64,000 nucleotides of DNA from Longimicrobiales bacterium (GTDB taxonomy: Bacteria; Gemmatimonadota; Gemmatimonadetes; Longimicrobiales; Gaopeijiaceae), in contig OZ241869.1 of the NCBI GenBank assembly GCA_965202805.1, forward strand, positions 3,104,001-3,168,000. Direction: 5' to 3'. Below the pieces are notes generated by a model. It was given only the letters and a program-made list of their open reading frames with translations, was not told the origin of the DNA and did not search any database. Of the stretch, positions 22,929 through 26,455 are shown in pieces (position 1 is the stretch's first letter; every line of letters begins with the position of its first letter). The translations under genes and the position numbers were made by a program.

Positions 22929-23678
22929 TCAGGATTGCTCCGCGTTCGGCAACCTGCCCTTGTTGACCGTGTACCAGACGCCCAGCGCTCCCAGCGCCGT
23001 CCACCCGATACTGTACGCGAGAATCTGCGCGAGCGGGATCCAGAAGGCATCGGACACGCCGACAAGGAAGGCACGGAATTCTCGAATGGCGGGAATCGGA
23101 ACGAGTATCGCCTCGAAGAGCCAATTCCACGGTCGACCGAGTAGATCGGGCAACGCCATTTGGGTGGCCACGGCTCCCACTGACAGAAAGCCGATCGCAA
23201 CCAGAGTCGACCCTCGCGAGATCCAGGAGGAGAAGCCAAACGTGAGACATGCCAGGACGAGCACATATGGGAGGGGGGCGAGTAGCGATCCGACCTCGCC
23301 GGATTCACCAAGCGCCGCTGTCCCCAGTCGAATCGCACCAAGAGCGAGCAGTGCGCATGCCAGCGCAACCAGGAGCCGCTCGCAAAACCCGCACAGATAG
23401 AAACGTACCGGATCGACTGGCTTTTGTAACCATAGTCGCGCCACACCAGTCCTGAAGTCTCCGGAAACAACGCCGGCGACGAAGATGAACGGAAGAGCAA
23501 GACAAAGCAGCGCATAGGTGTCGATCCAGCTCTCCAGCATGGCCGAGATATCGCCGCTGGTCAGGCTGCGAAACTCGGTAACCTGAATTGCCAGGACGGT
23601 CAGGATGAGCGCGTTGAAGCGGGATCGGATCAATAGGACGGTTCGTCTGGCGAAGGGAATATACATGTTAATGGTCAT
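22929..23678 (-). CDS. ABC-2 type transporter permease
   Basis: About six hydrophobic helices; SGDFRTGVARLWLQKPV motif; 1 nt downstream of the ATPase gene. Confidence 0.75.
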   Translation of the reverse strand: MTINMYIPFARRTVLLIRSRFNALILTVLAIQVTEFRSLTSGDISAMLESWIDTYALLCLALPFIFVAGVVSGDFRTGVARLWLQKPVDPVRFYLCGFCERLLVALACALLALGAIRLGTAALGESGEVGSLLAPLPYVLVLACLTFGFSSWISRGSTLVAIGFLSVGAVATQMALPDLLGRPWNWLFEAILVPIPAIREFRAFLVGVSDAFWIPLAQILAYSIGWTALGALGVWYTVNKGRLPNAEQS

Positions 23679-23679
23679 C

Positions 23680-24405
23680 TCAGGTGAATTCAGACTCCAA
23701 TGCGGTCGCGACCGGTGCGTCAGCAGGCGTTAGGTTCGGGCCCGGACGAATCTTCCCGTTCTCCAGAATGAACGCCCGGTTGGCCAGTCGTTCGACTTCG
23801 GCAAGTTCGTGGCTGGCCAGCACCACTGTGGCGCCTCGTTGTCGGGCGTCGATGATTTCCTTTCGAAGGGCATGCCGAGAGGGCGGATCGAGCCCCGCGA
23901 ACGGTTCATCGAGCAACACGACTGCGGGCTCGCCAATCAGTGCGTAAGCCAAGGACAACCTCCGCTTCATCCCTCCTGAGTATCGTCGAGCGGCTCTCGC
24001 CAGGGCGGTGGAATCGAAGCGACTTCGAGCAACGGCTCTGCGATAGGCCTCGCGCCGCTCATTCGGCGGCAGGCGGCTAAGATCGACCCCACGACCGAGC
24101 AGATCGCGCGCGTTCCACAGGCGTGGAAACTGAATCGATTCGGGCTGGTATGCGATTCCGAACTGCTCCCGATAGTCCCCCGCCGGAATGCCACCGATGA
24201 GACACTGCCCGGCATCCGGCGTGAGGAATCCCAGGAGAGTTCTGAACAAGGTCGTCTTCCCTGCGCCGTTGGGTCCAACGATCGTAGTGACTTCACCGGG
24301 TCGGGCAGTAAGACTGATGTCTGATAGTACTCGGCGCGGGCGAAGCAGCTTCCTGTAAGAAACGCTAGCACCCTGGACGAGTATGTCTGCGGGGGGGTTG
24401 GCCAT
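23680..24405 (-). CDS. ABC transporter ATP-binding protein
   Basis: Walker A GPNGAGKTT, signature YSGGM, Walker B LLDEP, switch SH; ATG 24405 just after the upstream stop. Confidence 0.9.
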   Translation of the reverse strand: MANPPADILVQGASVSYRKLLRPRRVLSDISLTARPGEVTTIVGPNGAGKTTLFRTLLGFLTPDAGQCLIGGIPAGDYREQFGIAYQPESIQFPRLWNARDLLGRGVDLSRLPPNERREAYRRAVARSRFDSTALARAARRYSGGMKRRLSLAYALIGEPAVVLLDEPFAGLDPPSRHALRKEIIDARQRGATVVLASHELAEVERLANRAFILENGKIRPGPNLTPADAPVATALESEFT

Positions 24406-24406
24406 C

Positions 24407-25516
24407 CTAGCGATTCTCCCGGGGATAGATGGCAATTCGGGTGCCTTCGATGTCTTCCCAACCTGCCAGCAGCGATTCGTCGTGTGCGAAGACGTATCTT
24501 GCGCGCGGGAGGGATTGCGTACGCCCACCCGCATAGGGCATGACCAGTTCATAGCTCTCCGGATCATCAGACACGAGCACTCGGTAAATCCAATCTTCGT
24601 CTGACGTTACGAAGACCGATACGAAGGGAAAGAACCGATCGGGAAGGACCCATTCAACATCGAGTCGACCCCGCAGCGCAGCTTCCATCTCGTTCACGGC
24701 CGCTCGCGGAGGGGTCATCGGTGTCAGCCAGTCGTGACAAACCGACTCAAGCACCTCGCCTCCTGTATGGTAGACACTCAGACATTCCTCTCGAGCACTG
24801 CCAAACACGAATCCGTCCGGGTGCGCGCTCAGCAGGGGTGGGGTGAAGGCGTCGACGACAACGGGTCCGTCGCGCGCGGGGAGCCGCGTGGCGACGGTCC
24901 TGATGAATCCATCCGTTGTTTCGAGAAGCACCCGGGATTCAACTCGCATGTCCGCTTGCGTGCAGGTCACCAGGAAAAACAGGCCCACGGATGCCGAGGC
25001 GACATCAAGGATCTGCGGCACCAGGCACGCATCGAGGCGGAGCAGGCGCTCCTCGATGGGAGCCCCCTCAAGGGAGTACAAGTGAAAATAGTTCACGCCG
25101 TGTTCCGTCACTACGATGGTATCCCCATGCAAACCGATGGCAGTTGGTAGCCCTCTGAATTCTCCGGGTCCACCGCCTTCTCTGCCGAAACTCCCCAACA
25201 ACGTTCCGTCGGAAGCGATTCGATGAACCTGGCTTCCGATGATGTCCAGCACGAACCAGATGCCGTTGTGGAACACCGCATCTTCCACCGACAGCACATT
25301 CTGAAAGAGAGGAGTCCCCGGAGGCGCTTCAAGGGGTTGTCGCGCTTGCAAGACCTCGCTCGAGTTGCCATTGGGATCTTCGTTCGTGCGAGTATCAGTC
25401 CGACCCCGCCAGACATCTATTACGCTCCACAATAGAGCGAGTGCAGCGGTCGCGAGCGCAACCCACACCAACCATGGGGCAAGCGGTCCACGGACCCTTT
25501 CTGTCGTGACGCTCAT
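24407..25516 (-). CDS. Membrane-anchored 6-bladed beta-propeller (NHL-like) protein
   Basis: AGGAG RBS; N-terminal transmembrane helix; FGREGGGPGEF blade motif; LYSLEG repeat. Confidence 0.8.
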   Translation of the reverse strand: MSVTTERVRGPLAPWLVWVALATAALALLWSVIDVWRGRTDTRTNEDPNGNSSEVLQARQPLEAPPGTPLFQNVLSVEDAVFHNGIWFVLDIIGSQVHRIASDGTLLGSFGREGGGPGEFRGLPTAIGLHGDTIVVTEHGVNYFHLYSLEGAPIEERLLRLDACLVPQILDVASASVGLFFLVTCTQADMRVESRVLLETTDGFIRTVATRLPARDGPVVVDAFTPPLLSAHPDGFVFGSAREECLSVYHTGGEVLESVCHDWLTPMTPPRAAVNEMEAALRGRLDVEWVLPDRFFPFVSVFVTSDEDWIYRVLVSDDPESYELVMPYAGGRTQSLPRARYVFAHDESLLAGWEDIEGTRIAIYPRENR

Positions 25517-25732
25517 GAATGTCAGCTCCTATTCGCGAGAGTTATGGATTGCGTCAGGGAAGCCAAGGCGTCGACAGTCCTCACGATCCATGGCATCCCA
25601 GCGTCATCGGCTCTCTACCATGATCGCCCAATCCTTGCGTGTTGACCATGCCTGGATGAGAACCCGAGGGTGGCAATTGTAACGAATGTGGTGGCCGGAG
25701 ATCGCATGAAGGTCATCTGGGCCTGGTCGGGC

Positions 25733-25766
25733 GCTCCAGGTCCGGAACTCCCACCGGACCTGGAGC
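25733..25766 (-). terminator. Perfect 13-bp stem-loop downstream of the peptide genes (attenuator or mRNA-stabilising hairpin)
   Basis: GCTCCAGGTCCGG-N8-CCGGACCTGGAGC, about 40 nt after the stop at 25806; no U-tract. Confidence 0.7.
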
Positions 25767-25805
25767 AACCCCGCCAACCGCAATGCTGACTCGCCACCCC
25801 ATACT

Positions 25806-26099
25806 CTAGTTGAAGAGAATGGCCTTGTAGAGTGTGGCGCTGCAACCTGCGGCGTCAAAGCCCCAGAAGAGTCGGCAACCTATCCGACCCCTGGTGTTCT
25901 GTCCTGCGCTACACTGTGCCAAAGCGTCATCGGCAGCGTCCATGCACTTATAGTACTTTTCGCTGGGGGTGCAGTCACGGGACGTGCCATCTCGGTTTGT
26001 GCACTCCGCGAGCAGCGGTCCAGCTCCAAGAGCCAGAGCCGTTACGAGGGCGAGACCGAGTCCCGTGGTTCGCATTAGAAGATTTCTTGCGCGCATCAT
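25806..26099 (-). CDS. Secreted Cys-rich small protein B (97 aa; 6 Cys; twin CX10C core)
   Basis: GGAG RBS; Sec signal ending PLLA; paralogous to 26228-26455. Confidence 0.85.
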   Translation of the reverse strand: MMRARNLLMRTTGLGLALVTALALGAGPLLAECTNRDGTSRDCTPSEKYYKCMDAADDALAQCSAGQNTRGRIGCRLFWGFDAAGCSATLYKAILFN

Positions 26100-26227
26100 G
26101 GATATTCTCCCGTGGGTCTAGGTGGATGATCAGATGGAGGCCGTAGCATCTGTTGCTCAGGCCAGATCGATGCCGCCGTCCGCGCTGGTCGGAAACACGG
26201 CCGGGACGATCAGAAAGAGATCAGTGG

Positions 26228-26455
26228 TTAGGTGACGCAATCTGCCGCGTCGAAGATCAGAATAGCCGTGCAGGTGATACGGTCCCAGAAGCTGTTTGCC
26301 TCCCCGAGGCATTCGCCGTAGTCCTCTACCGCTTCGCCCAGGCACCCCTTGAAGACTTTCTCCTGTGCGCCCAACGGCGGTCCGGCGGCCAGTGCGGCCG
26401 CCAGAGCGAGCCCCGCTCCGGTCAAGCGTACGAATCGTTTCGTTGTTCCGATCAT
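26228..26455 (-). CDS. Secreted Cys-rich small protein A (75 aa; 4 Cys; twin CX10C core)
   Basis: AGGAG RBS; Sec signal ending PLGA; CX10C-X12-CX10C. Confidence 0.85.
   Translation of the reverse strand: MIGTTKRFVRLTGAGLALAAALAAGPPLGAQEKVFKGCLGEAVEDYGECLGEANSFWDRITCTAILIFDAADCVT

Follow-up and report, generated by a model that had tools for sequence, protein, structure and literature searches.

Using a 64,000-nucleotide stretch of a Longimicrobiales genome (contig OZ241869.1, positions 3,104,001 to 3,168,000; hereafter the window) and a set of related genomes, we analyzed a cassette in which genes for small cysteine-rich peptides stand next to genes for a membrane-anchored beta-propeller and an ABC transporter. 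The cassette consists of five genes, all in the same orientation on the minus strand of the window, with an RNA stem-loop and a conserved spacer between the second and the third gene:

26228-26455, minus strand: pepA, precursor of 75 aa; N-terminus signal-like, mature part of 44 aa acidic and with twin C-x10-C (four cysteines)
25806-26099, minus strand: pepB, precursor of 97 aa; N-terminus signal-like, mature part of 66 aa with C-x9-C plus twin C-x10-C (six cysteines)
25733-25766, minus strand: RNA stem-loop directly 3' of pepB, with stem CTCCAGGTCCGG / CCGGACCTGGAG and an 8-nt loop, without a U tract
25517-25805, minus strand: spacer or leader of 289 nt, non-coding and conserved, separating pepB from the propeller gene
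24407-25516, minus strand: NHL-type beta-propeller, 369 aa, six blades, membrane-anchored, predicted to face the periplasm
23680-24405, minus strand: ABC ATPase, 241 aa, with its ATG at 24405, 1 nt past the propeller stop codon
22929-23678, minus strand: permease, 249 aa, integral-membrane and likely ABC-2-like, 1 nt past the ATPase stop codon

The gap between the propeller and ATPase genes is a single base (24406), as is the gap between the ATPase and permease genes (23679). A preliminary description of the sequence had reported five co-oriented genes, a hairpin and 1-nt gaps at 22929-26455, and all of these elements are present in the open reading frame (ORF) coordinates. The GC content falls to 0.595-0.64 over the cassette (0.595 at positions 24001-26000), compared to approximately 0.68-0.70 in the flanking 10 kb. 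The same description had excluded enzymes that modify ribosomally synthesized and post-translationally modified peptides (RiPPs) as well as C39 exporters, and radical SAM, YcaO, LanM and C39 domains are indeed absent from the 10 ORFs that were scanned in the interval 18.4-29.8 kb; none was found in the loci of relatives, which were scanned with the cassette profiles and not fully annotated. With neither a linked modifying enzyme nor a C39-peptidase exporter, the cassette falls outside the definition of a RiPP gene cluster. PADLOC returned generic ABC-ATPase matches only and no defence system, Rfam returned nothing across 22.5-27.2 kb, including the spacer, and a scan for promoters and terminators gave nothing that exceeded shuffled sequences. 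Literature searches, which covered result listings and the beginnings of abstracts, did not turn up anything about the cassette.

The two peptides are homologous (BLASTP E 4e-7) and share the cysteine scaffold proposed for them earlier: pepA contains C-x10-C twice, and pepB contains the same twin motif plus an additional N-terminal C-x9-C. Both N-termini have a basic region, a hydrophobic core and an A-x-A-like site, as judged by eye and not by a predictor; among the family domains, 139 of 150 come after a hydrophobic run, and the median number of residues ahead of the domain is 29. A profile (A2) built from 30 peptides was searched against 1.84 billion protein representatives and recovered 178 clusters at E<=1e-3, counted at the 50% identity level, and 63 at E<=1e-10. 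Nearly all members are about 100 aa long and carry the domain at the C-terminus, approximately 29 residues from the start; at least one listed match, the 1775-aa repeat protein P0113, looks spurious, and ten members that were looked up had no informative names. We found no Pfam match for pepA, only Yeast-kill-tox for pepB (14.2 bits versus a cut-off of 23), and no NCBIfam family for either. The system, which had been described as a candidate new one, is real, conserved and unnamed, and no Pfam or NCBIfam model assigns its peptides to a known family of unrelated function. One protein, P0211 (193 aa), is membrane-anchored and contains three tandem twin-cysteine hairpin domains.

The AlphaFold2 model of mature pepB (alignment A2; pLDDT 95.6) has strands at residues 2-3 and 9-10 and helices at residues 14-33 and 38-64, i.e., the predicted fold is a short beta-hairpin followed by a two-helix hairpin. 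Foldseek found no match to this model at E<=0.001 among solved structures. In the 178 aligned sequences, all six cysteines are retained in 137, both N-terminal cysteines are missing in 21, and both inner cysteines are missing in 14, whereas, if a few gapped and truncated rows are set aside, the loss of just one inner cysteine occurs in none of the 178. C32 and C44, the inner pair, have the same midpoint as C21 and C55, the outer pair. Because cysteines are lost in pairs and the inner and outer pairs are centered on the same point, the alignment implies the disulfides C1-C2, C3-C6 and C4-C5, which would staple an antiparallel helical hairpin. The family is strongly acidic (net charge: median -7, range -18 to +6, for 150 domains in 148 proteins). 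Besides the cysteines, only one Ala and one Asp are near-invariant in the 30-peptide alignment, and the loop Trp is not conserved. Two further roles of the peptides were considered: that of a metal chaperone is rejected, as there is no conserved His or Met in the peptides, and that of a cofactor-bearing subunit is weakened by the variability of the loop Trp.

For the propeller, a profile search of the PDB gave matches to NHL domains (E 2.4e-23), the AlphaFold2 model (pLDDT 83.6) has an N-terminal helix at residues 13-40 and 23 strands in approximately six four-stranded blades, and the top Foldseek matches are the NHL domains of TRIM71, Brat and Thin (E 4e-10 to 1e-8). These three lines agree with the membrane-anchored, NHL-like propeller of the preliminary description, and the modelled fold clearly belongs to the class of NHL-repeat six-bladed beta-propellers. 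The match to Pfam PF17170 (DUF5128) is below the gathering cut-off (15.1 versus 22.9 bits, E 0.013). In an alignment of 39 homologues (A1), four cysteines are invariant, as are D79, D91, E119 and D132, and H98, R99, H232 and H261 are near-invariant; overall, the invariant positions include D, E, H and W residues. In several homologues, a lipobox-like signal takes the place of the anchor helix. From the four invariant cysteines and these lipobox-like N-termini, a position outside the cytoplasmic membrane, facing the periplasm, is predicted for the propeller. Like the peptides, the propeller domain is acidic (median net charge -17); approximately 12 cytoplasmic residues lie ahead of the anchor, and there is no output domain.

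It should be noted that the genome carries many NHL-like propeller paralogues, with 27 places at E<=0.1, including the cassette gene, and 19 partial matches to PF17170 at E<=0.001 that do not include the cassette propeller. Outside the window (e.g., G000:C1, 3905099-3910221), four paralogous genes of 413-439 aa are adjacent, with one of 466 aa nearby. Two apparent propeller-ATPase fusions, P0054 (608 aa) and L159:4812-6797 (G456), are probably frameshifts or assembly errors because the middle of the L159 propeller lies in another frame, and because the lipoboxes and invariant cysteines place the propeller outside the cytoplasm. The 1-nt spacing of the genes probably lies behind these fusions, via a frameshift or an assembly error.

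The ATPase belongs to the ABC_tran family (PF00005, 93.9 bits versus a cut-off of 25). Its best NCBIfam matches, namely DrrA, LptB, NodI, PQQ_ABC_ATP and galliderm_ABC, are all far under their cut-offs; among these families, the score for the lantibiotic protection ABC model TIGR03740 is 102.7 bits versus a cut-off of 309.75, and that for TIGR03864, the ABC system of the PQQ-dependent alcohol dehydrogenase, is 104.7 bits versus 302.25. The permease is likely ABC-2-like, although its score against ABC2_membrane_3 (PF12698) is 14.2 bits, below the cut-off of 31.6, and a profile of 15 permease orthologues matched only PmtD in the PDB, at a non-significant E 0.08. Both genes were detected after a propeller at 28 sites; at 27 of these, the permease is immediately 3' of the ATPase, and in G338 it overlaps the ATPase frame.

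Which of the five genes belong together in evolution was judged from both directions. Starting from the propeller, we tabulated 39 sites in 34 genomes, leaving out three further sites and the propeller fragments of G293. A family peptide is adjacent and on the same strand at 26 of these sites (37 of the 39 being assessable), 11 have no peptide, and two, at contig ends, are not judgeable. The peptide is usually upstream of the propeller, and orthologues of pepA were found in this position in relatives; in G377 and G122, two peptide genes are downstream of the permease. Of the 39 propellers, 29 are followed by the ATPase, the permease or both, and six propeller-ABC sets have no peptide within approximately 5 kb. 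Starting from the peptide, the propeller comes directly after 15 of 17 further peptide sites, with one of the remaining two at a contig end and the other without a propeller, i.e., 15 of 16 assessable sites have one; ABC genes follow just five of these 15 propellers. From these counts and the variable presence of the ABC genes, it follows that the constant unit is the peptide plus the propeller, and that the ABC pair is frequent but optional. The profile and co-occurrence search proposed in the preliminary description thus leads to a narrower unit than the five genes it had envisaged: the synteny of peptide and propeller is kept in the loci of relatives, whereas the transporter is optional, and the order of peptide before propeller is the usual one, with the two sites mentioned above departing from it.

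The distribution of the unit is uneven. The peptide profile has 31 places in 26 of the 121 genomes of the window's family, usually one to three per genome, and there are one to three peptide paralogues per propeller. Orphan propeller sites outnumber peptide sites without a propeller of their own (11 versus 3), and several copies are present in each of the genomes G122, G272, G377 and G235. At E<=1e-15, the propeller profile has matches in 36 of the 401 Gemmatimonadota genomes searched, some of them partial and limited to the NHL part; 29 of the 36 come from the 69 genomes that were sampled in the window's own family. A search of related loci for full-length propellers, which used a smaller alignment (A5), found relatives in named records only in metagenome-assembled genomes of Longimicrobiales or Gemmatimonadota, mainly Longimicrobiales; one full-length relative is labelled Gammaproteobacteria, and its contig was placed in the window's genus by the genome set. 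Within that genus, the cassette is present in 10 of 18 genomes.

The tight adjacency of peptide and propeller could mean that the propeller has in the peptide a small and stable periplasmic subunit, a substrate or an adaptor, the pair forming an enzyme or an ABC-powered envelope machine, with no antagonism involved. There are parallels for such an arrangement, as methylamine dehydrogenase has a disulfide-rich light chain on a propeller heavy chain, and NosD works with NosFY. The 1-nt spacing of the propeller, ATPase and permease genes suggests one complex, the four invariant acidic residues of the propeller together with H98, H232 and H261 could form a metal or active site, and both extracytoplasmic partners are acidic, with a peptide that would remain in the periplasm. 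The weak resemblance of the ATPase to that of the PQQ system (104.7 bits, as given above), the operon of which includes a propeller, points in the same direction. We nevertheless consider this explanation rather unlikely, given the patchy distribution within the genus, the presence of up to three peptide paralogues per propeller, and the peptide alignment, in which the near-invariant positions are confined to the cysteines, one Ala and one Asp and the loop Trp varies, making a cofactor-bearing subunit unlikely. The RNA structure and the history of the site, described below, speak against it as well.

The stem-loop after pepB has a G+C-rich stem of 12-13 bp and no T tract. The fold of 25700-25810 has an energy of -56.5 kcal/mol (z -3.69), and one of 200 shuffled sequences was equally stable, in line with the strong hairpin reported previously. 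The structure is kept in G006, G001 and G017, where changes in the arms preserve G.U pairs on the sense strand only. The spacer has a mean column identity of 89% among four genomes, and indels of 1 nt rule out that it is coding. Because it has no U tract, the stem-loop is not a canonical terminator. The stem-loop suggests unequal amounts of peptide and propeller, a point against the subunit explanation.

Within the genus, the cassette has a single, hypervariable location in the chromosome. The genes that flank it in the window also enclose it in six genomes (G006, G001, G009, G011, G008 and G016): on one side there are genes for a small membrane protein, for a K+ channel and for a DEAD-box helicase, and on the other those for a protein of 344 aa, for a CXXCH protein of 547 aa and for an M28 peptidase (G009 lacks the 344-aa and CXXCH genes). 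In G011, the flanks are 94-98% identical to those of the window, with the exception of the helicase (79%), whereas the identity is 54% for the propeller, 71% for the ATPase, 69% for the permease and 55% for the single pepA-like peptide of 84 aa. The synonymous divergence (dS) between the two genomes is 0.83-2.23 in the cassette compared to 0.15-0.28 in the flanks. Because the dS is far higher in the cassette than in the flanks, the cassette alleles are much older than the genomes around them. Among close alleles (G006, G001), the ratio of nonsynonymous to synonymous divergence (omega, dN/dS) is 0.34-0.43 for pepA, the fastest-evolving gene of the cassette, 0.27 for the propeller and 0.08-0.25 for the flanks.

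In G011 (L074:9560-11447) and G008 (L075:3694-5217), fragments of the small-membrane-protein and 344-aa genes are found between two copies of the cassette. Both genomes have an intact second pepA'/pepB' pair, the propeller, the ATPase and most of the permease of that copy being deleted, with the last ~72 permease codons left. These arrangements look like the scars of tandem integration followed by deletion.

Five genomes of the same genus without the cassette were inspected (G018, G005, G002, G010 and G007), and in four of them a different cassette occupies the same site:

L069:2656-5072 (G018), L070:5215-7631 (G005), L072:2608-4636 (G002), L073:2708-3702 and beyond (G010): alternative cassette

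The alternative cassette encodes an unrelated cysteine-rich signal peptide-bearing product (C-x7-C-x5-C-x4-C followed by a YY motif), a membrane-anchored protein of 172-180 aa with no family match, and an NHL-like propeller lipoprotein of 344-346 aa. It has no ABC genes, and in G018 and G005 it has a second cysteine peptide. Between the alternative propeller and that of the window there is a single blade-level match (E 0.007). In the fifth genome, G007 (L071:2600-10001), the site next to the K+ channel gene contains transposase-like and reverse-transcriptase-like ORFs and no cassette. The locus is a clean natural case of cassette replacement between near-identical flanks. Whole-cassette replacement, even by an unrelated peptide-propeller cassette, would be unusual for a housekeeping enzyme and is a further point against the subunit explanation. 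The swapping of cassettes and the deep allelic divergence are those expected of a system of antagonism or recognition.

We put forward, tentatively and with a probability appreciably below even, the reading in which peptide and binder form cognate pairs of toxin and immunity, shaped by diversifying or balancing selection and with ABC-assisted expulsion. This reading is suggested by the tight linkage of the genes, their exchange as a unit, the deep alleles and the analogous cassette at the same site; by the patchy and multi-copy distribution, the excess of orphan propellers over orphan peptides and a stem-loop that would favor peptide mRNA; and by the GC dip and the fastest evolution of the exposed parts, i.e., pepA and the propeller, which is above the flanks. 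In such a system, the peptides would likely be antagonistic or recognition effectors, exported by Sec and then oxidised to the C1-C2, C3-C6, C4-C5 pattern. The stem-loop past pepB could let the peptide mRNA exceed that of the propeller and the ABC genes. At the outer face of the inner membrane, the propeller would bind its own peptide variant, as an immunity protein or a receptor, and the ABC-2-like transporter, where present, might clear the peptide from the membrane of the producer, in analogy to LanI plus LanFEG.

Several observations weigh against toxin and immunity. Gemmatimonadota are taken here as two-membraned, and a Sec signal in such a cell would stop in the periplasm; no gene for export across the outer membrane was seen in the cassette. 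The acidic peptides do not look like a classic cationic antimicrobial peptide, and their strong acidity is atypical for membrane-active bacteriocins, although it may reflect the compartment or the habitat, since the propeller is also acidic. The dN/dS ratio is below 1 for every gene. The orphan pepA'/pepB' pairs of G011 and G008 are awkward for a toxin, unless the neighboring cassette cross-protects. Judging from the six sets without a peptide, the propeller-ABC set can function without a peptide encoded in cis, and the invariant D, E, H and W residues of the propeller could equally mark the active site of an enzyme.

Cognate-looking sets of alleles that are exchanged as units are also compatible with peptides that are released signals or kin-recognition ligands, the propeller being a strain-specific receptor. 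Orphan propellers, which are common, resemble solo receptors, and the position of the stem-loop downstream of the peptide genes fits here too. Against this, the propeller has only ~12 residues on the cytoplasmic side of its anchor and lacks an output domain, neither the cassette nor its conserved flanks contain a kinase or regulator, and no export route over the outer membrane was seen, such that we regard this explanation as improbable. Another explanation is related to the habitat: a sequencing run labelled as sponge metagenome contains 0.69 of the sampled cassette words, which is a hint only (no RNA dataset with the locus was listed by this search), and the genome has the many propeller paralogues mentioned above (27 places at E<=0.1, 19 partial for PF17170). 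NHL-like repeat proteins have been reported as enriched in sponge symbionts. The cassette could accordingly be a host-interaction module of an animal-associated bacterium, with peptides that act on host cells, e.g., those of a sponge, and a propeller-ABC set that handles them or protects against them. This is highly improbable, as the hint comes from one sequencing run, the cassette has neither a secretion system nor a eukaryote-like domain linked to it, the anchor of the propeller is in the inner membrane, and nothing connects the peptide to a host target.

Returning to the toxin-immunity pairs, a more general formulation is possible, though on the whole doubtful. The locus might be a new type of polymorphic lock-and-key system in the bacterial envelope, in which Sec-exported, stapled alpha-hairpins are each matched to an anchored NHL propeller, with or without an ABC pump, and in which balancing selection would keep ancient sets of alleles, and even unrelated cassettes, at one hot spot.

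In the domain scan of the surrounding ORFs, the neighbors of the cassette came out as a DEAD-box helicase and a K+ channel, an M28 peptidase, a protein with a CXXCH motif and an unknown protein. The CXXCH protein (20042-21685, plus strand; 547 aa) has one CXXCH, several HH/HxH motifs and a weak match to Cytochrome_CBB3. The adjoining gene (21821-22855, plus strand) encodes the secreted 344-aa protein, which has no family. This gene pair is a conserved neighbor in most members of the genus; it is absent from G009 and degraded in G002 and G010. On the other side (26911-27117, plus strand), there is a gene for a conserved 68-aa two-helix membrane protein with a CCG motif at its end, which adjoins every type of cassette in the genus (67-95% identity), and the fragments of which mark recombination joints.

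The analysis defines an unnamed peptide family with a confidently predicted fold and a disulfide map deduced from the paired loss of cysteines, and it ties this family to an unnamed subfamily of NHL propellers. To our knowledge, NHL propellers are common in bacteria and their partners are rarely known, and there is almost no experimental biology of Gemmatimonadota. If the cassette serves toxin and immunity or recognition, it would open peptide-mediated competition in Gemmatimonadota to study and provide a scaffold, a compact and stable helical hairpin, for which nature already supplies a binder. If the lock-and-key interpretation is true, this would be the first propeller-based system of peptide immunity or recognition, and the first bacteriocin-like family for Gemmatimonadota.

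Among known systems, LanI plus LanFEG is similar in that a tethered extracytoplasmic peptide binder, an ATPase and an ABC-2-type permease are encoded beside a peptide gene, and in that a stem-loop follows the peptide gene. It differs from the cassette, in which the peptides have putative Sec-type signals and no linked modifying enzyme, an NHL propeller would be the binder, and the ABC pair can be missing. The Sec-dependent bacteriocin operons of the lactococcin 972 type, with an ABC immunity pair, resemble the cassette, with its putative signal peptides, in having a signal-dependent, enzyme-free ribosomal peptide encoded next to ABC genes, for which no dedicated exporter is needed; however, NCBIfam gives no sequence relation, the host of the cassette is taken as two-membraned, and the propeller is its constant partner. 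PmtABCD, the exporter of phenol-soluble modulins (PSMs) in Staphylococcus, works as an ABC-2-type pump for the export of helical peptides and also shields the cell that produces them. Its PmtD is the sole solved permease matched by our profile, at the non-significant score given above, and the PSMs lack the signal peptide and the disulfides that are predicted for the cassette peptides, nor does their export involve a propeller.

With regard to the peptides, mitochondrial twin CX9C (CHCH) proteins and the alpha-hairpinins of plants likewise have two antiparallel helices with two disulfides from paired C-xn-C, as predicted here, and the weak, non-significant Foldseek rows include the vicilin leader peptides Jug r 2 and Ana o 1 (E 2.8-3.9). 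The cassette peptides are bacterial and carry putative signals, have a spacing of 10 rather than 9 or 3, and carry an extra N-terminal C-x9-C beta-hairpin. A helical hairpin is predicted for them, but with a spacing of 10 in both motifs and no sequence match they fall outside the twin CX9C (CHCH) class.

With regard to the propeller, the Bacteroidetes DUF5128 (PF17170) lipoproteins are also extracytoplasmic and six-bladed, PDB entry 4raa being a weak match (E 0.0069), whereas the cassette propeller is under the Pfam cut-off, as noted above. The DUF5128 genes may lie beside genes for small NVEALA peptides and TlpA-like proteins; the NVEALA model PF14055 had no match even in the control genomes, and neither NVEALA nor DUF5128 turned up in the literature search. 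Finally, in NosDFY and in the ABC system of the PQQ-dependent alcohol dehydrogenase with its YVTN propeller (TIGR03864/TIGR03866), an ATPase and a permease of the 6-TM type are co-transcribed with a periplasmic beta-rich protein, as in the cassette; there are, however, no Nos or PQQ genes near the cassette, the propeller of which is of the NHL type and tied to a peptide gene.

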